Source of the DNA: Escherichia coli
GTDB lineage: Bacteria > Pseudomonadota > Gammaproteobacteria > Enterobacterales > Enterobacteriaceae
Length of the DNA stretch: 64,000 nt
Assembly: GCF_001677475.2 (NCBI RefSeq)
Contig: NZ_CP015229.1
Strand: one strand, 5' to 3'
Shown: positions 9,648-50,358 of the stretch, one piece after another
How positions within the stretch are numbered: the first letter of the stretch is position 1
Layout of the letters: each line of letters opens with the position of its first letter
Made by a program: the position numbers and the translations under genes
The notes under the pieces: generated by a model
Database searches by the model: none
Seen by the model: only the letters and a program-made list of their open reading frames with translations
Told to the model about the DNA's origin: nothing

Positions 9648-10154
9648 TTGAGTATTTTCAATAAACACGCACACCAGGAACGTCCGTACATCGTCATAGT
9701 AGATATTGATGGGACGATATCAGAGGCAACGGAAGACAGGCTGCATTTACTTCCACCACCAGGTAAAGGTGCATTAACAGAGCACTGGAACGAGTTTAAC
9801 CTTGCCTGTGAAACTGATGCTCCCATTACTCCAGTTATTGATATGGTGCGCCAGTTATCCAGCATTTACACGGTCTGGTTTGTAACCGGGCGCTGTGAGA
9901 TCGCAAGGGATAAAACACGAGCCTGGCTGCGAAAGTACGTAACAAACGGGGATGAGCCTTTGCTATCTATGCGTCCTGCCACCGATGACAGAAATGACGG
10001 TCCAGCAAAGATTGATCTCCTGAAGAAAATTGGTCTAAGTAAAATTGCGTTCGCGCTGGAAGATAAGATTGAAGTGGCGCGTGTTTTCAGGAGTCACGGC
10101 GTACTTACATTAATGGTTAGGGAGTATGAAAATGCGCTTCTTCATCAACAATAA
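9648..10154 (+). CDS. HAD-superfamily hydrolase/phosphatase-like protein
   Basis: 168-aa track ORF; TTG start 7 nt after GAGGAGGG; HAD motif I VIVDIDGT. Confidence 0.6.
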   Translation: MSIFNKHAHQERPYIVIVDIDGTISEATEDRLHLLPPPGKGALTEHWNEFNLACETDAPITPVIDMVRQLSSIYTVWFVTGRCEIARDKTRAWLRKYVTNGDEPLLSMRPATDDRNDGPAKIDLLKKIGLSKIAFALEDKIEVARVFRSHGVLTLMVREYENALLHQQ

Positions 10155-10170
10155 TTGCTCTAATAAATGT
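10154..10170 (+). promoter_or_regulatory. C1-repressor operator
   Basis: ATTGCTCTAATAAATGT, 16/17. Confidence 0.7.
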
Positions 10171-15960: not shown

Positions 15961-17154
15961 GTGACCTGGGACGATCACAAGAAGAATTTTGCTCGCCTGG
16001 CGCGAGATGGTGGTTACACCATCGCACAGTATGCCGCCGAGTTTAATCTTAACCCTAATACCGCACGTCGTTATCTCCGTGCCTTCAAAGAAGACACCAG
16101 GACAGCGGACAGCCGCAAGCCAAATAAGCCAGTCAGGAAGCCACTAAAAAGCATGATCATTGATCACTCTAATGATCAACATGCAGGTGATCACATTGCG
16201 GCTGGAATAGCGAAAAAACAAAGAGTTAATGCCGTTGTCAGTGCCGCAGTCGAGAATGCGAAGCGCCAAAATAAGCGCATAAATGATCGTTCTGATGATC
16301 ATGACGTGATCACCCGTGCCCACCGGACCTTACGTGATCGCCTGGAACGCGACACCCTGGATGATGATGGTGAACGCTTTGAATTCGAAGCTGGCGATTA
16401 CCTGATAGATAACGTTGAAGCGCGGAAGGCCGCGCGCGCTATGTTGCGTCGGTCCGGGGCCGATGTTCTGGAAACCACTCTTCTGGAAAAGTCTCTTTCT
16501 CATCTCATTATGCTGGAGAACGCCAGGGATACGTGTATTCGCCTGGTGCAGGAAATGCGCGATCAGCAAAAAGACGATGATGAAGGTACTCCGCCTGAAT
16601 ACCGTATCGCGAGCATGCTAAACAGCTGTTCCGCGCAGATAAGCAGTCTGATCAACACCATTTACAGCATCCGGAATAACTATCGAAAAGAAAGCCGGGA
16701 GGCGGAAAAGCACGCTTTATCTATGGGGCAAGCTGGCATTGTTAAGCTGGCATACGAACGAAAGCGTGAAAATAACTGGTCAGTGCTGGAAGCAGCTGAA
16801 TTCATCGAGGCGCATGGTGGGAAAGTGCCGCCCCTGATGCTGGAGCAAATCAAAGCCGATCTGCGTGCTCCTAAGACCAATACCGATGATGAGGAAAGGC
16901 AAACTGCCGTCGGTGGCCCTTCTCTTGAAGATCTGGACAAAGTTGCGCGAGAACGGGCCGCCAACCGCCGCGCCGATGCCGCATTGTGGATTGAGCAACG
17001 TAGGGAAGAAATCGCCGATATCGTTGATACAGGCGGTTATGGAGATGTTGATACTGAAGGTGTATCAAACGAACCATGGCTGGAACAAGACCTGGACGAA
17101 GACGAGGAGGAAGACGAAGAAGTTACCCGCAAGCTATACGGGGATGATGATTAA
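15961..17154 (+). CDS. pacA: terminase (pacase) small subunit PacA
   Basis: 397 aa; GTG start after AAGGAAG; contains the pac hexamer cluster; precedes pacB with a 1-nt overlap. Confidence 0.85.
16154..16312. other. pac packaging site (4 + 3 hexamers TGATCA/TGATCG flanking the cleavage region)
   Basis: TGATCA at 16154, 16161, 16173, 16188 and TGATCG/TGATCA at 16284, 16296, 16307, all containing Dam GATC, inside pacA as described for P1 pac. Confidence 0.7.
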
Positions 17155-18638
17155 TGGCCAGAAGTTGCGTAACGGATCCGCGTTGGCGCGAGCTGGTGGC
17201 GCTATATCGTTATGACTGGATTGCGGCGGCAGATGTTTTGTTCGGCAAAACACCTACCTGGCAGCAGGATCTGATTATTGAGTCTGTGCAGGAACAGGGT
17301 AGCAAGACATCTGTTTCGTCTGGTCACGGTACCGGGAAATCAGACATGACTTCTATCATGATCATGTTGTTCATAATCATGTATCCCGGTGCCCGCGCCA
17401 TTATCGTTGCGAACAAAATTCAGCAGGTAATGACCGGTATATTCAAGTACATCAAGATAAACTGGGCTACGGCCACCAGCCGTTTTCCATGGCTTGCTGA
17501 TTATTTTGTTCTGACAGAAACCGCTTTCTATGAGGTTACTGGTAAAGGTGTATGGACTGTAGTACCGAAGGGCTTTCGTCTGGGAAGTGAAGAAGCTCTC
17601 GCTGGTGAACACGCAGACCATCTTCTGTATATTATCGATGAAGCCTCCGGTGTCAGTGATAGAGCTTTCGGTATCATCACCGGTGCTCTTACCGGACAGG
17701 ATAACCGCATCTTATTGCTGTCACAGCCTACACGCCCAAGCGGCTATTTCTACGATACTCACCATAAACTGGCCAAGCGTCCTGGTAACCCTGATGGCGT
17801 TTATACGGCGATCACGCTTAACAGTGAGGAATCACCGCTGGTAACGCCAGCATTTATCAAAATGAAGCTGGCGGAGTACGGCGGGCGTGATAACCCTATG
17901 TACATGATTAAGGTACGCGGCCTATTCCCTAAATCACAGGATGGCTTCCTTCTTGGACGTGATGAGGTTGAACGTGCAACGCGGCGGAAAGTCAAGATTG
18001 CCAAAGGATGGGGCTGGCTTGCATGTGTGGACGTTGCTGGTGGTACGGGACGGGATAAGTCCGTTATCAATATCATGATGGTGTCCGGCCAGCGAAATAA
18101 ACGCCGTGTAATCAACTATCGAATGCTGGAATACACAGACGTTACAGAAACGCAGCTTGCTGCCAAAATTTTCGCAGAATGTAATCCTGAGCGATTCCCC
18201 AATATCACCATAGCGATAGACGGCGATGGCCTGGGTAAAGCAACGGCGGATCTGATGTACGAGTATTATGGTATTACCGTACAGCGTATACGCTGGGGTA
18301 AAAAGATGCATAGCCGTGAAGATAAGAGCCTGTACTTTGATAAACGTGCTTATGCCAACGTTCAAGCCGCAGAGGCCGTAAAATCTGGTCGTATGAGACT
18401 GGATAAGGGTAATGAAACTATTGAGGAAGCGTCGAAAATCCCTGTAGGGATTAACTCCGCAGGTCAATGGAAGGTGATGAGTAAGGAGGATATGAAGAAA
18501 AAACTCAACCTGCACTCACCAGACCATTGGGATACATATTGTTTCGCTATGCTGGCGGATTATGTTCCCCAGGATGAAGTGCTTAGCGTCGAAGACGAAG
18601 CGCAGGTTGATGAAGCTCTGGCATGGCTTAATGAATGA
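17154..18638 (+). CDS. pacB: terminase large subunit PacB
   Basis: 494 aa; ATPase motifs GHGTGKS and LYIIDEASG. Confidence 0.9.
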
Positions 18639-18641
18639 ATA

Positions 18642-18658
18642 TTTGCTCTAATAAATTG
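18642..18658 (+). promoter_or_regulatory. C1-repressor operator (Op51-like, heading the immI-like module)
   Basis: TTTGCTCTAATAAATTG, 15/17, immediately after the pacB stop. Confidence 0.65.
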
Positions 18659-21752: not shown

Positions 21753-21769
21753 TAATTTATTAGAGCAAT
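21753..21769 (-). promoter_or_regulatory. C1-repressor operator (Op99-type)
   Basis: reverse complement ATTGCTCTAATAAATTA, 16/17, upstream of coi-c1. Confidence 0.75.
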
Positions 21770-21835: not shown

Positions 21836-21852
21836 ATTGCTCTAATAATTCT
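21836..21852 (+). promoter_or_regulatory. C1-repressor operator
   Basis: ATTGCTCTAATAATTCT, 15/17, divergent from the 21753-21769 site. Confidence 0.7.
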
Positions 21853-41377: not shown

Positions 41378-41394
41378 ATTGCTCTAATTAATTT
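41378..41394 (+). promoter_or_regulatory. C1-repressor operator between divergent lyz and ssb
   Basis: ATTGCTCTAATTAATTT, 16/17. Confidence 0.75.
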
Positions 41395-41413: not shown

Positions 41414-42046
41414 GTGGCACAACGCGGTGTAAACAAAGTCATCCTGATTGGTACCCTGGGGCAAGACCCGGAGATCAGGTATATACCAAATGGCGGCGCG
41501 GTCGGAAGACTCAGCATCGCAACGAATGAATCATGGCGCGACAAGCAAACGGACCAACAGAAAGAGCAAACAGAATGGCATAAAGTCGTTTTGTTCGGAA
41601 AACTTGCTGAAATTGCGAGTGAGTATTTACGAAAAGGTTCTCAGGTCTACATCGAAGGGAAACTTAAAACCCGTAAGTGGACAGATGACGCCGGTGTAGA
41701 ACGTTACACGACGGAAATTATCGTCAGCCAGGGCGGCACCATGCAAATGATCGGCGCTCGCCGTGACGATTCACAGTCCTCAAATGGCTGGGGGCAATCA
41801 AACCAACCTCAAAACCACCAGCAATACAGTGGTGGCGGTAAACCTCAGAGCAACGCCAATAACGAACCTCCAATGGACTTTGACGACGATATTCAAAAAC
41901 GACTGAAAGAAAAGCGGTGGTCCAGACGCCGACAAAAGCACGAACTCGCTAAAAAACGCCAAAGCTGGCAATGGCACGCGCTTTTCACGAAAAGAACACC
42001 CCGAGGCATTGCTTTCGCTGGTGGGAAAACATTCCTCCCCACCTGA
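41414..42046 (+). CDS. ssb: single-stranded DNA-binding protein with atypical C-terminal extension
   Basis: GTG start; N-terminal OB fold near-identical to the E. coli SSB sequence as recalled, through ...[10 protein letters not shown]; the canonical final PF-stop is replaced by about 50 basic residues ([14 protein letters not shown]...). Confidence 0.85.
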
Positions 42047-42083: not shown

Positions 42084-42737
42084 ATGAATAAAATGGCAAC
42101 GAAAGAGCTTTTTAAGTTCCTTCCCAAATACAAAGCTCACAAAATCGTTAGTGCATCGAAAATCAAAGATATCGAGATTATCTCATTGATTGATAATACC
42201 CCTGCTTGTGGCTATATCACATTAATGGACCCCCAAGGCGTAACGGTTCGTGTTGATGCAGCGTTTTTGCAAAAACACCGACCAGATACTGGCGGCTATC
42301 TGCTCGGTTATGAGGACGGTTATCTGTCCTATTCACCAGAAAAAACATTTGAAGAAGGCTTTAGTCGGACTAACGACTTCTTCGAAAATGAGGTATCGCT
42401 TAGCATTGAAGGTCACAATGGGGTGACATTCATTACAGCCAGGGACGTAACTATTGCTGCCGGTGGCATCATTACCACACAAGAAGAAATCGACCTTGAA
42501 GCAGCCGACTTCTCTGACGCGCTAATGTGGTTGAAGGAAGGCAAGAAAGTTGCCCGACGCGAGTGGAAAGGCGAAAAGCAATTCTGCTGGTTAGTTCTCG
42601 CTGGAAGCGTCAATTTACACGGCATTCACGTTCCTTATGGTGACCATTTTGTATTGAAAGATGCACAAAATATGGACAGCGTTTGGTTGCCGTCTGTGGA
42701 TGATTTACTGGCATGTGACTGGTTTGTAGTGGAGTGA
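42084..42737 (+). CDS. hypothetical phage protein with DUF2829-like C-terminal domain
   Basis: track ORF 42009-42737 trimmed to ATG 42084; C-terminal ...ALMWLKEGKKVARREW...DLLACDWFVVE. Confidence 0.5.
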   Translation: MNKMATKELFKFLPKYKAHKIVSASKIKDIEIISLIDNTPACGYITLMDPQGVTVRVDAAFLQKHRPDTGGYLLGYEDGYLSYSPEKTFEEGFSRTNDFFENEVSLSIEGHNGVTFITARDVTIAAGGIITTQEEIDLEAADFSDALMWLKEGKKVARREWKGEKQFCWLVLAGSVNLHGIHVPYGDHFVLKDAQNMDSVWLPSVDDLLACDWFVVE

Positions 42738-42743
42738 TTTAAC

Positions 42744-43526
42744 GTGGAAAATACTAAAGCAATTCAATACCGCCTGCGTAATGGTCAGAGTGTCGAAGTG
42801 ACCATCAATAATGATGGTGTGCCTGGCGAAAAGGTTTCGATCTCTGATCTGGCTATCGAAAAAACCATCATGTGCCACCTTGGCTTTACTGAAGAAGTGA
42901 GCAAAAAGCATGGTGTAGCAATCTGGAGCGCAATGGATACTGGTATGCGCAGATTCATTACTGCTCGTACCCCAGGGATGACCATGATGGACCTCATGCA
43001 GATTGCGCCGCTGTTTGAATGTGAGCCTTTAGATGTATTCAGCAATCCAGCTATCTGCCAGCAGTTATATGGTGAGATGAAACTCGCGGTTACCCCCATT
43101 GTGCTGCATGAAGGATCGCTTGCTGGCGTGTGGAAAGTGGAGCGTATTTCAAGCTACATGCCTTTCCATGTCAACGGCGTAATCACTGGTGAAAATCAAC
43201 CTGTTTCCGTTATAAAGTCAGACCTCAAGCGCGCAATTCTTGAAGCAAGTTGTCGAGTTGTCGGCCTGGGCAAACAGTCTTATGTTTCCTTCCCGGCTGG
43301 CCCTGAAGGCCCGGCAGAAATTCTGATTATGGATGCCGATCTGCTATGGCAAATACAGTTTCTGATTGGCAAAAGCATCATCCGCGCTGAAGAACTCGAT
43401 CAGTACATTACCTGCACGATGACGGATGAAGTCAAAAGTGTGGCTATAGCCAATGCCCGGAACCTATGTCGTGCTGCATTAACAGAACTGCAAGAAAACA
43501 CCACGGAAGAGGTGGAAAGTGATTAA
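42744..43526 (+). CDS. hypothetical protein
   Basis: 260-aa track ORF (GTG start), overlaps the next gene by 8 nt. Confidence 0.55.
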   Translation: MENTKAIQYRLRNGQSVEVTINNDGVPGEKVSISDLAIEKTIMCHLGFTEEVSKKHGVAIWSAMDTGMRRFITARTPGMTMMDLMQIAPLFECEPLDVFSNPAICQQLYGEMKLAVTPIVLHEGSLAGVWKVERISSYMPFHVNGVITGENQPVSVIKSDLKRAILEASCRVVGLGKQSYVSFPAGPEGPAEILIMDADLLWQIQFLIGKSIIRAEELDQYITCTMTDEVKSVAIANARNLCRAALTELQENTTEEVESD

Positions 43527-44613
43527 TCGTATACAGAATGAATCTGCCTGGTTAGCACTGATAGAACGGTATAAAGACAATTGGGAACTGGCAGCAAAAG
43601 AGTTGCTTGATATTGAGTTAACACCTCATCAAGCAAAAATTATTAACGCGATAAAGAACACCGGAGCCAAAGTCACTGCCACCACACCACATGGTATTGG
43701 GGAAACCTCTATTGTGGCAGTGATTAGCATCCTGCAAACAATACTGTATTCGTGTTCCCGTACAGTGGTTGTTTCTCCTGCGATTAACGATAGTCGAAAA
43801 ACAATAATTGACTATATGTTCCGTTATTGGGAGCGAGTTACCCAAAAACACCCTTTTCTTGGCAATTATTTCAGAATACACCCTGACAAAGGGTTGGTGC
43901 ATATCAGTGAAACATGGGGATGCGTCTATATAACCTATTGTCTGAATAACGAAGAGTCTCTGGCTGGTTTTACTGGACCGCACGATCTTTTCATCGTTAT
44001 TAACTCGGCGGAAATCAGCGATCGCGCTCATGCAGTGATAACTGGCAATTTAACCAATTATGACTCGCGCCTGCTGTTGCTGTCGAAACCATCGGAACGC
44101 GAGAAAGGGTACTTTTATGATTCGCATCACCGGTTGGCCCATAGTAAAAACAATCCTGCTGGTTTTTTCACGGCGATAACTCTAAACACAGAGGATTCAC
44201 CTCTCGTTTCTGAAGCATATCTTGAATTCAAAGCCAAAGAGTTTGGTGGACGCAATAGCGATGAATATCGCCGATTGATCTTGGGGAAATTCCCCGGGAT
44301 TCGGGAGTTGATGGAAAAGTCATCTGTTCCCCGTAATATGCACTTCACAATGACTGACGGTAGTAAATGGGTAGTGCCTACGATCGTGATCGCCAAACAC
44401 CATGCGAAACATCACGCTCAAAAACACAACTCCAGCACATTAGACTGGCTGAAGGCCTATACAATACCGTTATTCTCGGCAAACCATAACGCTATAACTG
44501 AATGGGCTAAACAAATCCCCTGGCAGGATGTGGCTGAAGAGGCGTTTGTCGAAAAACCACCAAGAGATTTGCACGAGCACTGTTGGCTGACATCAGAAAA
44601 AAGCTTCTCGTGA
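43519..44613 (+). CDS. terminase-large-subunit-like ATPase paralog (PacB N-terminal domain homolog without nuclease half)
   Basis: 364 aa; shares blocks with PacB at 17154-18638 (LLLLSKPSEREKGYFYDSHHRLA vs [22 protein letters not shown]; FTAITLNTEDSPLV vs [14 protein letters not shown]). Confidence 0.65.
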   Translation: MINRIQNESAWLALIERYKDNWELAAKELLDIELTPHQAKIINAIKNTGAKVTATTPHGIGETSIVAVISILQTILYSCSRTVVVSPAINDSRKTIIDYMFRYWERVTQKHPFLGNYFRIHPDKGLVHISETWGCVYITYCLNNEESLAGFTGPHDLFIVINSAEISDRAHAVITGNLTNYDSRLLLLSKPSEREKGYFYDSHHRLAHSKNNPAGFFTAITLNTEDSPLVSEAYLEFKAKEFGGRNSDEYRRLILGKFPGIRELMEKSSVPRNMHFTMTDGSKWVVPTIVIAKHHAKHHAQKHNSSTLDWLKAYTIPLFSANHNAITEWAKQIPWQDVAEEAFVEKPPRDLHEHCWLTSEKSFS

Positions 44614-44616
44614 GGT

Positions 44617-44646
44617 AAAAATCCCGCCGATTGGCGGGATTTCTTC
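44617..44646. terminator. bidirectional rho-independent terminator
   Basis: ATCCCGCC-GATT-GGCGGGAT stem flanked by A-run and T-rich run between convergent genes. Confidence 0.6.
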
Positions 44647-44953
44647 AATATACGATCTGGTCTACATGATCACCAAAATCATCGTCGTCGTCCTCATCGC
44701 CACCATCTACTGCTGGCCAATCAACAAACCAGCCAGCGTAAAGATGCAGCGTTCGGAGAACATCACTTGCGGGAGCATCAAGGGTGTTAACGAATCCCAT
44801 ATAGCTATTGGGATTTGCTCCAGCTATGGCTTCAGCGATCATGTCCTCGGTAATGTCACCGGAGATAATGCTTAAACGCCCGGAAACTTCTTCATTATCA
44901 TCAAATTCGATAATGGCATCTCCACCTAATGGCGCTGCGATTTTAATCTGCAT
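44645..44953 (-). CDS. small acidic protein at the end of the darA-type operon
   Basis: 102-aa track ORF ending in an Asp-rich tail; overlaps the ddrB-like stop. Confidence 0.5.
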   Translation of the reverse strand: MQIKIAAPLGGDAIIEFDDNEEVSGRLSIISGDITEDMIAEAIAGANPNSYMGFVNTLDAPASDVLRTLHLYAGWFVDWPAVDGGDEDDDDDFGDHVDQIVY

Positions 44954-45789
44954 TATTTAGCTCCTTTGCCACACCTAATAACAGTTCCAGCAATCCGTCA
45001 CCATTCATCAGTGATGCGGCAGCGGCCTCTTTGTCATGATACAACTGAAGAGCCATAGAGAATACTTCCGTTGCTGACGTTTTGGAAATAGTCGGTGATT
45101 TCTGCCGAATTTTCCCGGTGTTACTTACTGAGGCTGGCGGGTATACCTTCGCCATATAAATATTACTCAATCGAGATCTGAAGCACCATTCAGGCTTGCC
45201 ACGCCCACCGATATTGACGAAAGATGGCTTATCCCCTTCAACATTGGCCTTCAGGAATGACCGGGCTTTCTCTAACAAACCAGGGTTACTGTACTCAAGA
45301 TGATGACCCAGCTCGTGCCACAGTGCACTTGCATTTTCATCGTTCAAATTGACAGCAACAACACCATTTAGATTTGCATATGCCCTTCCCTGGTGGTGAA
45401 CTACCTTTGATAAGGTCGATATTTTCCCGCCGGTCAGGCGATAAATATCAGCAAGTTCCTTGCGCAGGTCTATCCCACCATTCTGTCCAGCGCGGGCTTC
45501 TTCCACTTCTTCTGTGATAAAAGAGTCGGCCCACTCAAGAGCTTTTTCTTCAGATACGGATGAGTTTGCGATCGCACTGTTCATGGCAGATAACACTTTC
45601 TCGTGGACCGAACCCATACTTCGCTGATTCATTTGCCAGCGTGTCTGCGGGTTATATGAGAATCGCTTAAGTAGTTGGTCAAGCTGCTCAAGTTCTTCTT
45701 CACTGACATACTTTTTAGCCTCACTATTAGACGTCAACTAGTTTTGCCGACTCGCGCCAACTATACTGGCCGCACCCTTCAGGGCGACA

Positions 45790-46545
45790 TCAAGTCGCGC
45801 TTGTTACTGCCTTCGCTGTCTTTTTCCTGTAGCTTTCCCCTTTCAGTTCGAACATATATCCGTGATGGATCAGCCTGTCTGCCGCAGCCACCGCCATAGT
45901 CTCATCCACGAAGATGCTGCCCCACATGCTGAACGGATGGTTACTGGTTATCACCAGGCTCCCACGTTCATAGCGATGCGCTATTAACTCGAACAGCACA
46001 CCCGTTTCGGCACTATCGCGTTTGACATAGCCAAGATCATCCACCACTATCACCCGGTAGCGATCCAGTTTCAGTAGCAGCTCATTCAGTTTCAACTGAG
46101 CTCTGGCTTTACGTAGTTCCTGCAACAGCTCTCCTGCGCTGTAGAACCGGGCCCGGTAGCCCTGACCTACTACGCCATCCACGATCGCTGCCGCCAGATG
46201 GCTTTTCCCCAACCCGCTGGCTCCGAACAGCAGAACGTTTTCTCCTGCATCAACCCAGTCTGTCGTTTCACAGAGTTGCCGGAACTGAGCTCCATTCAGT
46301 TCCGGCACCTGACTGAAGTCGTATTCGCTCAGCGTTTTGGCAACTGGCAACCGGGCCTCCTTTTTATAACGACGCAGTTTTTCACTCTCGCGCCACAGGA
46401 GTTCTTCATTGCATAGCGTCAGAAGATAGCGCGATGGTGTCCAGCCTTCTGCCAGCGCTCGTTTTTCCAGAGCGTGCCATTCAGCTCCAACTCGTGTCAG
46501 GCGTAGTTTACGCAGGCTATGTTCAAGGTGATGGATATTGCTCAC
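45790..46545 (-). CDS. istB: IS21-family IstB helper ATPase
   Basis: 251 aa, one residue different from copy 1 (DRLIHHG vs DRLLHHG). Confidence 0.92.
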   Translation of the reverse strand: MSNIHHLEHSLRKLRLTRVGAEWHALEKRALAEGWTPSRYLLTLCNEELLWRESEKLRRYKKEARLPVAKTLSEYDFSQVPELNGAQFRQLCETTDWVDAGENVLLFGASGLGKSHLAAAIVDGVVGQGYRARFYSAGELLQELRKARAQLKLNELLLKLDRYRVIVVDDLGYVKRDSAETGVLFELIAHRYERGSLVITSNHPFSMWGSIFVDETMAVAAADRLIHHGYMFELKGESYRKKTAKAVTSAT

Positions 46546-48041
46546 TGCGAACCTCCCTTGCCACGCAGTAGTTGCTCATAACTGCTCAGGTTATGCTGTA
46601 TCACATTGACTACCGGCAACGCCTTTTCTTTTATACCCAGGAAGCGCATCAGCCGGTGCAGATCCACGTTTCCCGGGGTATTCAGCATCTGCTCCATACC
46701 TTTTGCCACGACTGAGATATCGTCGTATCCTGCAGCCAGTTTCAGGGCATGTACCATCAGCCTTCCTGCCATATCGGGCTCCAGATGATTACATAAGCGA
46801 CGCCACAGCCTCCGCCATTCATCGTCCGGCAGGATGTCATTTCTCAGCGTTGCATGGCAGAACGCACCGGGCTTTTTTGCCAGACTGTCGATCACATGTC
46901 GGAAGTCGATACGACGGGCCCGCGTCTTCCCTTTTTCTGGTCTGACGCGAGGGCAGCTCATGACCTCGCTGCTGCCAACGTAACAGCTCAGACGATCGTC
47001 CCATAACCTGACCCGTAACAGTTGACCTACAAGCCGGGAAGGTACGCTGTAGACGACGTGCTTCACATTGATGGTACTGCTGCGACTAACCCTCACAGTC
47101 AGCTCATCATAGTCAGCACTGCGACGAAGCGGCAGCGGTTTCAGATGAAGACGTTCTTCCTTGACCAGATCCTGATTGTTACGGTTGTGCCGCATAACCT
47201 GCTGAGTGATGAAGGCCTGATATTCTTCTATGGTGCTGAAGTCGTTACTGCCCCGCAGTATCAGCGCCTGACAGATACGCCTTTTCAGATGTCCGTGGGC
47301 ACTTTCAACCGAGCCATTTTCGTGGCCCCGACCGGCATTATTGTGTACGCCCTGCATTCCGTAGTGCTGACAGAGAGTAGCATAACGCTCAGTCAGCTCG
47401 CGGCGTCCATCTTCGCCCTGTTGTTTCCATGCTGCCCTCAGGCTGTCCGTTTTATGTTCTACCGGCACTCCGCCCAGTTGTCCGAGGGCTTCCTGCAGGC
47501 CTTCAGCCAGAGCAGAGAAGCTCTCACCACCCAGAACAACCCGCATCCAGCTCCAGTGGCTCCATTCCAGACGGAAGTGATACAACTTATGCGCCAACAA
47601 CTTACCGGCGATGGTGACAACTACACCTTTCAGTTCAGTAAAGTCCGACAGGCCTCGCAGGCCGGGCTGATGTTGCTGGCGGAACATGACCTCCTGCTCT
47701 GTACCATACTGTAGTTTCCATTCGCGAACCCGCCGTTGCATTGTTCTTCGAAGGCTGTTGGGGTACTGGCCGGGATATTTATCCTGTAGCATCTCCAGTA
47801 GAGTTGTTGGTGTCAGAGCCGGCCTCTCTTTCAACAGAGGAACAAGCATGCTGTCCCACACAGCTTCCAGAGGATCTTTGCGTGTGCGCCAGTGCCGAAC
47901 ACTGTTTTTTGCCCACTCTCCTTTTTCGATCCGACGACCAGAACGGACTGAGATACCAGCCTTCATGGCCGAGATATGCTGAGTTATACCTTTCTTACGC
48001 TGAGTCATATAGTAACTGACCTGAGAAGTATTGAGCGTCAC
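46542..48041 (-). CDS. istA: IS21-family IstA transposase (intact)
   Basis: 499 aa, GTG start; continuous frame spanning both fragments of copy 1. Confidence 0.92.
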   Translation of the reverse strand: MTLNTSQVSYYMTQRKKGITQHISAMKAGISVRSGRRIEKGEWAKNSVRHWRTRKDPLEAVWDSMLVPLLKERPALTPTTLLEMLQDKYPGQYPNSLRRTMQRRVREWKLQYGTEQEVMFRQQHQPGLRGLSDFTELKGVVVTIAGKLLAHKLYHFRLEWSHWSWMRVVLGGESFSALAEGLQEALGQLGGVPVEHKTDSLRAAWKQQGEDGRRELTERYATLCQHYGMQGVHNNAGRGHENGSVESAHGHLKRRICQALILRGSNDFSTIEEYQAFITQQVMRHNRNNQDLVKEERLHLKPLPLRRSADYDELTVRVSRSSTINVKHVVYSVPSRLVGQLLRVRLWDDRLSCYVGSSEVMSCPRVRPEKGKTRARRIDFRHVIDSLAKKPGAFCHATLRNDILPDDEWRRLWRRLCNHLEPDMAGRLMVHALKLAAGYDDISVVAKGMEQMLNTPGNVDLHRLMRFLGIKEKALPVVNVIQHNLSSYEQLLRGKGGSQ

Positions 48042-50358
48042 GCCATTTCCTGTTGGATCATGTAAATGACACTCAGGTTACAAAACCGGCCAGAATAATC
48101 GGCGCCAGGCGGACTGAGTTATTGTCGTCTCATACCTCACCAATAATGCCAGGGAGAATATTGCCGTTAGGATTAAACGCTCGCGAAAGGAAGAGTTTCA
48201 GCGCCCCCATGCCCTCCGATGCTTCAATATCACCAATAACCCGGTTAACAATGGCCGCACTCTTCGGATTAGCATCCGCCAACGCTCTGGCTACAATTTG
48301 CAGGGACGATACGACCTCACGCTGCATATCCGTCCTGATCTCATCAATAAACTCTGGCGTTATGCCGTGCTCTTTAAGAATATCCCTGCCTTCCGCCGTT
48401 ACCCCATCGATATCACCGACATGTTTATTAACCCGACTTTGCAATGCCTTAAATGCCTTCAGAATTCCACGGGAATCATCCGCTTTACTAACGGCCTTCC
48501 TGAATGCTGGCAAGAAGTCTGAGTTAACCTCATTTTGTTGATCGGCCCACTGAATGGAGGCTTCTTTCATCTCGTCCAGAGTCAGATCACCCAACGCGGT
48601 ATGGTCTGTGAATATGAGCGACAACCTCTGAACCATTTCTGCCAATGGTGATGCCGAATGCGCCGCGCTAAGGAATGCTTTCACCCTGGTTGGGCGAATG
48701 GAAAACCAGTCAATAGCTGGTGGCATATCTCCGTTTTGTATCGCCTGCGCTATCTCATCAAAGCCGTCGCGCCCAAGGGAGGATGCGTGATTTAACAATC
48801 CGCGAAGTAACGAATTGCTGATACCGAATAATCGGCACCATTTATTCACGTCGGCAACAGGCATTCGAACAAAATGCGCAAGCACTTGTACAAGCTGTTC
48901 ATCCTGGGGATCTGTACGGGAAAGCAGCCTGATCAGATGAATAATGTCTTTGATGCCGGATGCCCGATGTAATAGCAAGCTGGTATATGGAGCAACACCG
49001 TTGTAACTACCGCCGGAAACGGACTCGAAAAGACCGCCGGATATCCCTTGCATGCCTTCGTTTTCCAGTTCCTGAGACACCTGGCGAAGGATATCCTGTA
49101 ACGACACATCGCCGCCGCCAAACATATCCCCCAGCGCCTGGCCCTGGTGCTGTAACTCATCATTGATACGTTGAGCCATCAACTTAAAGGCGGTGGCCAT
49201 ACGCTTCGCGCTACGGTTATTCGCGACGATGAACAACGCGAGTGCTTTCACTTCCGGGGCCGTTTCGCTGAACATATCCCCCTGAGCAATAACATCGGTA
49301 ATATGCTGGCCTGACTCCTTCGATTGCCTTACCAGGTCTACCGCATCTTTCAATGCCGCCAGCGCCTTTTTATCGAGGCTATCCGCTGTCTCAATGCCAT
49401 CAACAATAGTTGTCACAGCCTGCTTGTGCGCTTCTCCTGATAAAGCCTGCATCTGGACAAAATCATTGGCTGCCGCATTAAGCGCCGTCAGAACATTACG
49501 CATATCCGGATCAGGTTCTTCTGCAACCATCCTTACCAGGCGCGCATCCTTATATGCCTTGGCAAAGATCGCGTTTTGTATACGGTCAACAAGTTGCCGC
49601 GTTGGTCGCCCATCTTCCGTTACAAGGCCAGCAGCCTGTGTGGCACCAACTTGCGTCATGAATCCGCGAATAAACGCGTCATTACTGCGGCTAAGCAGAT
49701 CTCCGCTTTCTGACGGATTAAACAGCGCCATCATCGCCGGTGTTATGCTGTCGGCATCAACAAAAGCCTTTTCACTGGCTGCCATTTCCTGAAGATCAGA
49801 AATATTTGAGTCCTTGGCAAACTGAACGCGGTCAACCTTAGTTAACCGGCGGCGCACCAATACAGGAGCCGTCATTGATTCAACCTTTTCAGGTCGTATG
49901 CCGAATTCGGTCGCATGTTCAATCAGGTACTCACGATACCGATCCGCATTGCCGTCCTGATAGGCTTTAATGATTCCCATGGTCCGTCCATTACCTGACT
50001 CAACGGCATTGTCCTCACCAATTATCGGCGCGCCATGGCTGGATAAACCGGAATCGGTAAGCTGAGCAGGCCGCAAATCTTTGGATATCTGGTTAACCTG
50101 AAGAAGGCTGGATGCGCGGGTCCGGTCGCGCGGCTGAAGTTCCTGGGGATAGTCAGGATTAATTTTCCCATCCAGAGTATTGGATACCAAAAGAGCTGAG
50201 GCATCGACGATATCAAACGCTGTTTTTACCTCGTCTCCCTTCGCTGTCACCACATACGAAACCCGCCCATAATCGGGCAGGTTCTTAAGCAGCTCGATCA
50301 GCGTTTCTATGCTGGTGGCAATTACCACCTGATCGCTTAAGCTCATCCCTGTTACGCC

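Follow-up and report, generated by a model that had tools for sequence, protein, structure and literature searches.

Terminases are a textbook conserved hallmark of the tailed phages, and they are a main pattern read by the NLR-like proteins of bacterial immunity. Ppi of the Staphylococcus aureus pathogenicity islands (SaPI) and Rpp of the phage-inducible chromosomal islands (PICI) are satellite proteins that bind the small terminase subunit of the helper phage; we know of no counter-defence protein with the fold of a large terminase subunit (TerL). For EcAvs2 and for Upx, the ATPase domain of TerL is sufficient by itself to be recognised; what Avs2 reads is the ATP bound by the terminase together with the Walker site (bioRxiv 10.64898/2026.04.30.721860). 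The DNA analyzed here, referred to throughout as the window, is a stretch of 64,000 nucleotides from Escherichia coli (contig NZ_CP015229.1). It derives from a P1-like phage-plasmid, and P1-type phages, along with hundreds of plasmids of Enterobacteriaceae, match the region at 93-99% identity. In addition to pacB, the gene for the large terminase subunit, the window carries a second terminase-like gene (43519..44613, plus strand), the product of which is called the paralog below. With high confidence, this protein is regarded as a pseudo-enzyme: an old paralog of the PacB ATPase domain that has the TerL fold, has lost catalysis and the nuclease, is under selection, is dispensable, and has so far been found only in P1/D6-like phage-plasmids that bear PacB. 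No description of a dead or second terminase paralog of P1-like elements was found in the literature.

The gene is an open reading frame (ORF) of 364 amino acids with a GTG start and a TGA stop, and identical boundaries are annotated in the RefSeq/GenBank entries of related plasmids and in MH422554. Its start overlaps the stop codon of the upstream isaA-like gene (43524-43526) by 8 nt, an arrangement that suggests translational coupling of the two genes. The gene is located between ssb (41414..) and hxr/ddrB (44645.., minus strand), with no small-subunit or portal gene adjoining. pacB is found directly 3' of a 397-aa PacA ORF, about 25 kb away, and a preliminary description of the window had correctly placed the paralog in the ssb-to-ddrB interval, distant from the pac module. 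The features used for the comparison of the two proteins are the following.

17154..18638 (+): pacB, encoding the 494-aa large terminase subunit at full length, with both the Walker motifs (A/B) and the nuclease half intact; the reference for paralogy.
43509..43514 (+): Shine-Dalgarno sequence GAGGTG, 4-5 nt 5' of the GTG of the paralog (from the sequence).
43519..44613 (+): gene of the dead, nuclease-less PacB paralog (ORF; BLASTP against PacB; ratio of non-synonymous to synonymous rates, dN/dS; boundaries matching RefSeq/GenBank annotations).
43531..43662 (+): N-terminal helical region, residues ~5-48, Q-motif H37-Q38 retained (model, alignment).
43684..43707 (+): degenerate Walker A, residues 56-63, TPHGIGET against SGHGTGKS in PacB; Lys changed to Glu, the neighbouring Ser/Gly changed too.
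43987..44013 (+): degenerate Walker B, residues 157-165, LFIVINSAE against LYIIDEASG in PacB; Asp-Glu changed to Asn-Ser.
Within 44083..44298 (+): degenerate motif III, SKPSE against SQPT-R in PacB.
44083..44298 (+): residues 189-260, a lid-like region that makes up the last third of the ATPase domain and shows the highest conservation with PacB (GYFYDSHH, SPLV, GGR, G.FP), with the degenerate motif III at its start.
44326..44610 (+): C-terminal orphan phage domain of ~95 aa, residues ~270-364, in the place of the nuclease (beta-hairpin, three helices, two short strands).

Residues 11-272 of the paralog were aligned by BLASTP with residues 11-274 of PacB in a single colinear alignment (35% identity, 58% positives, 6 gaps, E 8e-55); judged from the two sequences, the similarity is well above chance and is not of low complexity. 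The last ~95 residues of the paralog gave no BLASTP alignment to the nuclease half of PacB. Both proteins fall into phrog_5902 of the PHROGs collection, and both match phrog_2, "terminase large subunit", with E-values of 3.6e-9 for the paralog and 3.3e-40 for PacB. A profile made from 63 sequences of the family matched solved TerLs by sequence, namely Sf6 gp2, the ATPase domain of P74-26 TerL (E 8.8e-7) and T4 gp17. The AlphaFold2 model of the paralog had a mean predicted local distance difference test score (pLDDT) of 87.8, with values >90 across residues 10-260 and >95 in the N-terminal helices (9-18, 22-29 and 36-45). When this model was compared with the PDB using Foldseek, the top matches were TerLs: Sf6 gp2 (E 1.5e-9), the P74-26 TerL ATPase domain (template modelling score, normalized on the target, 0.64-0.68), the T4 gp17 ATPase domain and the TerLs of D6E and HK97. 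Solved TerLs were reached only by the family profile and the fold search, and a phmmer search of the PDB with the single paralog sequence returned no match. Pfam, NCBIfam and PADLOC gave no match for the paralog, and Pfam and NCBIfam gave none for PacB either. The colinear paralogy with the ATPase half of PacB proposed in the preliminary description was therefore borne out, and phrog_2 and Foldseek both return the TerL ATPase fold. By region, the identity of dead copies to PacB was 48% in the lid-like last third, 37% in the N-terminal helices and 33% in the RecA core.

Relatives were collected by running phmmer exhaustively against 1.84 billion representative proteins (746 matches at E<=1e-3, of which the 141 listed with a length of at least 200 aa were aligned); this search was needed, as a word-indexed search had found only 3 homologs of the paralog and 3 of its C-terminal domain. 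GK[ST] and DE were both present in 120 of the 141 listed relatives of this length. The listed relatives lacking the two motifs together were all of 230-444 aa, and none had a nuclease half. The dead PacB-like family is defined by the lack of the Walker A Lys and Walker B Glu, the lack of a nuclease, a length of 230-444 aa and a full PacB resident in the same element, all of which apply to the paralog; it makes up a part of phrog_5902. Its nine core members are P0001, P0002, P0004, P0006, P0007, P0009, P0010, P0013 and P0014. P0004 (366 aa, 49% identical) has the architecture of the paralog, P0006, P0007, P0009, P0013 and P0014 (252-266 aa) consist of the ATPase-like domain alone, and P0010 (444 aa) has a different tail; P0002 comes from a metagenome-assembled genome (MAG).

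Positions conserved in at least 80% of 29 active PacB-type TerLs were compared in the nine core members. The positions lost were S56, G57, K62, S63, H152, D161, E162, S164, G165, Q190, T192 and R194. Thus the Walker A pattern GxxxxGK[ST] is absent, K62 being replaced by E/H/R/R/M/T/I/C/T across the nine; in Walker B, D161 and E162 are lost in 9/9, with Asp at the Glu position in four; and Q190, T192 and R194 of motif III are lost throughout. The positions retained were Q37/Q38 (Q38 in 9/9), G59, G61, W133, E146, A149-G150, S189, P191, G197, F199, H204, S227-P228, V230, G244, Y250, G256 and F258. Since the replacements vary between members, the ATP site looks like a site under relaxed constraint after disuse rather than a new active site. 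With the Lys and Ser of Walker A, the Asp-Glu of Walker B, SQPT-R and the nuclease all gone, the paralog would neither power packaging nor cut DNA. Going by these residues, it cannot be an ATPase or a translocase, and it probably works by binding and not as an enzyme. The preliminary description had called the protein an ATPase, with a DNA-translocating role as one possibility, and had asked for the integrity of the Walker motifs to be checked; both motifs are destroyed, and that part of its proposal is not supported.

The nuclease half is missing, as had also been noted, and is replaced by a different domain. The C-terminal region is an orphan domain and not a nuclease; the paralog contains no RNase-H-like nuclease domain. 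Its motif is MxDGSxWxVP...IAxxHAxxHA...TxPLF...WAxxxxW, and when modelled alone on an alignment of 10 sequences the domain had a pLDDT of 88; no solved structure matched it. In PHROGs it corresponds to the C-terminus of phrog_17928. In CP2-like phages of Xanthomonas the domain ends a 471-aa protein, with DUF2303 on one side and a recombinase-exonuclease-SSB block on the other; it also forms a 98-aa ORF two genes past DnaB in Cronobacter phage JK004, occurs in Bordetella phage PHB04, and constitutes the 123-aa stand-alone protein P0126, encoded beside DUF2303 and an H-NS-like gene. Since most members of the dead family are without it, and one D6-like relative has lost it, the domain is accessory to the core function.

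The ~95-aa domain is itself a family, which conserves MPDGSxWxVP, TxPLF and DWAxNNMNWxDV and is found either on its own or behind various other N-terminal regions. Genes for DUF2303, DnaB, recombinase/exonuclease/SSB or H-NS-like proteins are repeatedly encountered nearby. Loci that carry it are L021 (Xanthomonas phage Tenjo, 2894-4309), L022 (JK004, 5001-5297) and L010 (2562-2933).

Six alleles of the paralog gene were compared, with nucleotide identities down to 92% (Escherichia albertii plasmids). All 364 codons were intact in each, without stops, and the pairwise dN/dS was 0.09-0.38; at 8% divergence, ~40 differences were synonymous and 46 non-synonymous. GIGET and IN[SA]AE were common to all six P1-type alleles, and the same Walker A motif was present in L001 and L003-L006. 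On these substitution patterns, the gene is not decaying and is maintained by purifying selection. In PLSDB the gene was found in 119 plasmids, at least 80% of it being covered in 118 of them; the copies H67, H84, H85 and H90 are either one base short (1094 against 1095) or reduced to 71% of the gene. pacB was found in 616 plasmids, so that the paralog accompanies it in about one fifth. The 90%-identity cluster of the paralog contains 851 sequences. The family has as hosts E. coli, Shigella, Salmonella, Citrobacter and Leclercia, in contigs of 80-100 kb. A resident PacB was found in the window, L007, L016 and L020, so that wherever inspection was possible, an element carrying a dead copy also carried a PacB-type TerL, and the exhaustive representative search detected no member of the dead family outside PacB-bearing P1/D6-like phage-plasmids.

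Neighbour-joining on the ATPase domain placed the nine core members in one clade, separate from that of PacB; as its bootstrap was only 54/100, they are likely to be monophyletic, though not securely so. Dead copies were 34-37% identical to the PacB of their own element in each of four elements, and this similar distance of ~35% fits one old duplication and not repeated recent ones. Between the same pairs of elements, dead copies were 33-49% identical to each other and PacBs 58-81%, which indicates that the dead copies are evolving faster than the resident PacBs. The net charge and isoelectric point of the dead copies showed no acidity of the kind seen in DNA mimics. The suggestion of a degenerate duplicate in the preliminary description, if taken to mean a recent copy or one in decay, is at variance with the dN/dS values, the intact codons of the six alleles and the old clade; the evidence points instead to the other suggestion made there, a co-opted regulatory or binding protein.

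Reference P1 is without the paralog. Using blastn and an IS1-free relative, homology was seen to end 9 nt into the gene and to resume at the hxr stop, and in P1 (L002, NC_005856, 3896-5608) ~94 bp, IS1 and isaB, which encodes an unrelated protein of 201 aa, take the place of the entire gene. Because the replacement takes in the whole gene, isaA and isaB should not be understood as names for the parts of a single gene. The possibility that isaA and isaB are halves of the paralog gene split by IS1 was considered and rejected, IsaB being unrelated and isaA being the intact upstream gene. Of the comparison with P1 called for in the preliminary description, the ssb-hxr slot is thus shared, and the gene itself is not. 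Both isaA and isaB were non-essential in CRISPR interference knockdowns in P1 (PMC10695390). Two IS1-free records named P1 carry the gene, under the label "terminase large subunit".

The trio of genes for a Tad2-like protein, IsaA and the paralog was also found in the D6-like elements L007 and L020, at 61, 47 and 49% amino acid identity, respectively, and at a different genome position, 3' of a cre-like recombinase and a dUTPase gene. Phage D6 has the first two genes of the trio and is without the paralog. The settings of the more distant members vary: they include an overlap with a gene for a Ref-like RecA-dependent nuclease, a position after a radical-SAM gene, a place among small early ORFs and the vicinity of partition genes. 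PHROGs annotation of the neighbours of the distant members gave nothing decisive. In the phage-plasmids of Citrobacter and E. coli L013, L014 and L015 (L013, 8001-8792), the dead gene overlaps the stop of the Ref-like nuclease gene (ATGA); in this lineage it also stands beside a polynucleotide kinase/phosphatase-like gene, a partnership that is possibly informative. P1-type C1 operators were searched for in L007, L013 and L016 and none were found, which probably reflects other repressor specificities.

Members of the dead family carry the public labels "hypothetical protein", "DNA packaging protein" and "terminase large subunit". Mislabelled records include MH422554.1 (16006-17100), MH445380.1, and MAG and UniRef entries (P0002, P0176, P0197).

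The paralog gene is the last of four tightly packed genes on the same strand, which with their flanking signals are as follows.

41378..41394 (+): C1 repressor operator ATTGCTCTAATTAATTT, equivalent of Ossb/Op21 of P1, 20 nt 5' of ssb (pattern search).
41414..42046 (+): ssb, first gene of the string ssb/tad2-like/isaA/paralog (ORF; identity to P1 Ssb).
42084..42737 (+): gene for a 217-aa Tad2-like protein (Tad2, Thoeris anti-defence 2; DUF2829), an insertion separating ssb from isaA (Pfam PF11195, E 3.7e-18, above the gathering score).
42744..43526 (+): isaA-like gene, 260 aa, directly 5' of the paralog gene (phrog_2326; homolog of P1 isaA).
44619..44642 (no strand assigned): stem-loop AAATCCCGCC-GATT-GGCGGGATTT, between the convergent paralog and hxr genes (from the sequence).

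The operator 5' of ssb is the sole C1 operator match in the string from ssb to the paralog gene, and its position equals that of the annotated Ossb of P1. The operator pattern had 5 matches in the window against 0.01 expected. The T-run of the stem-loop is on the minus-strand side, with a weaker one on the plus side, and the structure looks like a bidirectional intrinsic terminator that would close the string. A promoter scan gave nothing above background. From the lone operator 5' of ssb, the packing of the genes on one strand and the terminator-like stem-loop, the string is most simply read as a C1-repressed early operon. The ssb-hxr interval is a recognised variable region of P1-like phage-plasmids (PMC6906374, PMC9603915) and carries elsewhere a dGTPase-like gene, a porin or other cargo.

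Several further observations were made on the window. C1 operators are scattered in P1, and the other matches in the window (10154-10170, 18642-18658, 21753-21769 and 21836-21852) agree with this; one of them is immediately 3' of pacB, where the c1-side region starts. The Tad2-like domain takes up only the C-terminal 75 residues of the 217-aa protein, the N-terminal ~130 residues being without assignment. The Tad2-like insert was found in 19 matching plasmids only (at least 80% coverage of a 4.5-kb query), and its D6 version is shortened. IsaA was considered as a paralog of PacA, the small terminase subunit, which would have made a second terminase pair; this was rejected, since it has no similarity to PacA. 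IsaA had no sequence match in the PDB, and PADLOC gave no match for the neighbours of the paralog, P0010 or P0126.

Relative to P1 and three other P1-like elements, ssb has a deletion of 15 bp (CGTTTTGAATGTGTA) at a point near 41895. The deletion takes out the terminal Pro-Phe and the stop codon, giving an Ssb of 210 instead of 162 aa, the altered end of which is without the canonical ...DDDIPF tip. SSB partner proteins bind this tip, and the deletion may reflect either an assembly error or a genuine variant in which partner binding is impaired. An ISEc10 element (IS21 family; window ~45725-48136, with istB at 45790-46545 and istA at 46542-48041, both minus) is inserted in ddrB and splits it into an N-terminal ORF of 264 aa (44943-45737) and a C-terminal ORF of 738 aa (48130-50346), so that the Dar anti-restriction gene ddrB is probably inactive here.

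The leading hypothesis for the function of the paralog, put forward tentatively, is that it is a look-alike decoy against terminase-sensing immunity. The look-alike would be produced early from the C1-controlled ssb operon, ahead of the late-expressed PacB, and would occupy host sensors of the TerL ATPase fold (Avs1-3 and Upx-type). With the ATP site that they read erased and the nuclease half gone, the sensors would not be switched on, and the response to the real terminase would thereby be blunted. The Tad2-like neighbour would be a second counter-defence cargo of the same hot spot. A copy made early, lacking the features read by Avs2 and standing beside a Tad2-like gene in three backbones, would suit a competitor that binds the sensor and leaves it inactive, and the patchy distribution and fast divergence are those of arms-race-like cargo. 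The more general proposal, that P1-like phage-plasmids carry a family of early, catalytically erased TerL mimics that bind Avs1-3/Upx without activating them, is rather doubtful.

A number of points weigh against a decoy. EVADES lists a ligase and a DprA-like protein as inhibitors of Avs, and no terminase-mimic inhibitor of Avs is known; nor did PADLOC, Pfam or NCBIfam recognise the paralog. The only described analogue, T4 vs.8, reportedly activates EcAvs2 and does not block it (bioRxiv 10.64898/2026.04.30.721860). Upx reportedly recognises an unfolded ATPase core regardless of catalytic residues, so that the dead copy might trigger Upx. The neighbourhoods of the distant members (Ref-like nuclease, radical SAM, small early ORFs) are not clearly those of counter-defence genes, and a decoy leaves unexplained why the other homes of the C-terminal domain are replication/recombination modules. 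Finally, we infer early expression from the operator and the gene packing.

It is possible, if somewhat doubtful, that the paralog is a terminase-binding modulator, which would have kept the surfaces by which PacB meets its partners (PacA, other PacB protomers, the portal) and would act as a non-productive competitor. In this way it could time or limit pac cleavage and packaging, or poison the motor of a rival P1-like element. The lid-like third and the N-terminal helices, at 48% and 37% identity to PacB, are better conserved than the RecA core at 33%; in lambda gpA and P74-26 TerL, N-terminal segments and the lid mediate binding of the small subunit and assembly of the ring. The conserved lid residues may, however, be mere determinants of the fold. 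The invariable presence of a PacB-type TerL beside the dead copy, in all elements open to inspection, and the confinement of the family to such elements are in keeping with a modulator. The gene is nevertheless dispensable, since reference P1 and D6 do without it and yet are viable and package normally; it is patchy, in about one fifth of pacB-bearing plasmids, and it diverges much faster than the PacB that it would have to fit.

An accessory role in replication or recombination is unlikely. It would cast the dead RecA-like domain and the C-terminal domain as a scaffold that binds DNA, or Ssb, the Ref-like nuclease or a helicase, early in the lytic cycle. The position of the gene at the end of the ssb operon, the overlap of P0013 (Citrobacter/E. 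coli elements) with the stop of the Ref-like RecA-dependent nuclease gene, and the company kept by the C-terminal domain in the Xanthomonas phages (DUF2303, recombinase-exonuclease-SSB), in JK004 (DnaB) and around P0126 (DUF2303, H-NS-like) would all be in keeping with such a role. However, most members of the family are without the C-terminal domain and their neighbours vary widely. Proximity is also a weak argument here, as the early regions of temperate phages mix genes for DNA metabolism and for counter-defence, and dead copies are generally less basic than the ATPase domains of PacBs, which disfavours binding to DNA.

That the gene is a functionless relic, a decaying duplicate of pacB carried along, is very improbable and largely refuted: although both Walker motifs and the nuclease are gone, the gene is non-essential and absent from P1 and D6, and a few plasmid copies are of 1094 bases or 71% length, the dN/dS of 0.09-0.38, the freedom from stops in six alleles, the persistence of the architecture and of a set of non-catalytic residues in relatives down to 33% identity, and a good ribosome-binding site coupled to the upstream gene all speak for a maintained protein. 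A working second terminase or DNA translocase, as implied by the TerL ATPase fold and by the labels "terminase large subunit" and "DNA packaging protein" in MH422554, MH445380, the MAG records and UniRef, is hardly credible for a protein without the Walker A Lys, the Walker B Asp-Glu, motif III or a nuclease, encoded in the ssb string 25 kb from pacA/pacB with no small-subunit or portal gene adjoining.

The family is of interest as a clean example of a viral pseudo-enzyme, and as an annotation trap, since a spurious second TerL could mislead marker-based detection of phages and phylogeny. It offers a testable candidate for a terminase-mimic immune decoy or for a natural dominant-negative regulator of a headful packaging motor. 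Reference P1, the standard laboratory system, is naturally without the gene, which makes an isogenic plus/minus comparison easy. If the decoy hypothesis is true, it would represent an undescribed counter-defence strategy against terminase-sensing immunity, in which the decoy is built from the sensed protein itself.

Among known systems, the counter-defence proteins, such as Tad2, resemble the paralog in their accessory (for the paralog, presumably early) position, patchiness and fast evolution, and a Tad2-like gene is co-located with it in three backbones. SaPI Ppi and PICI Rpp are accessory, non-enzymatic proteins whose binding could block a terminase or divert it, and they may serve as the working analogy for a modulator; they are satellite-encoded and not derived from TerL, whereas the paralog is phage-encoded and TerL-derived. 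T4 vs.8 (L027, NC_000866, 9254-9913, minus; 219 aa) is likewise a stand-alone, nuclease-less paralog of a TerL ATPase that is encoded away from the packaging genes of a phage with a normal terminase. Unlike the paralog, vs.8 keeps Walker A (GGRQSGKS) and Walker B (LYIIDE). BLASTP of the paralog against vs.8 gave nothing significant (best E 0.023 over 25 residues), and on this account the two proteins arose independently. As for PacB itself, the whole ATPase domain is homologous and of the same fold, and the two proteins have in common the Q-motif, the glycines of Walker A, W133, E146-x-x-A-G, S189-x-P, GxFYxxHH, SPxV, GG, Y250 and GxFP. In contrast to PacB, the paralog is dispensable, patchy, faster evolving, encoded in a presumably early accessory operon and equipped with a different C-terminal domain. 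The dead family is thus a conserved pseudo-enzyme offshoot of the PacB-type terminase, with an architecture of its own.

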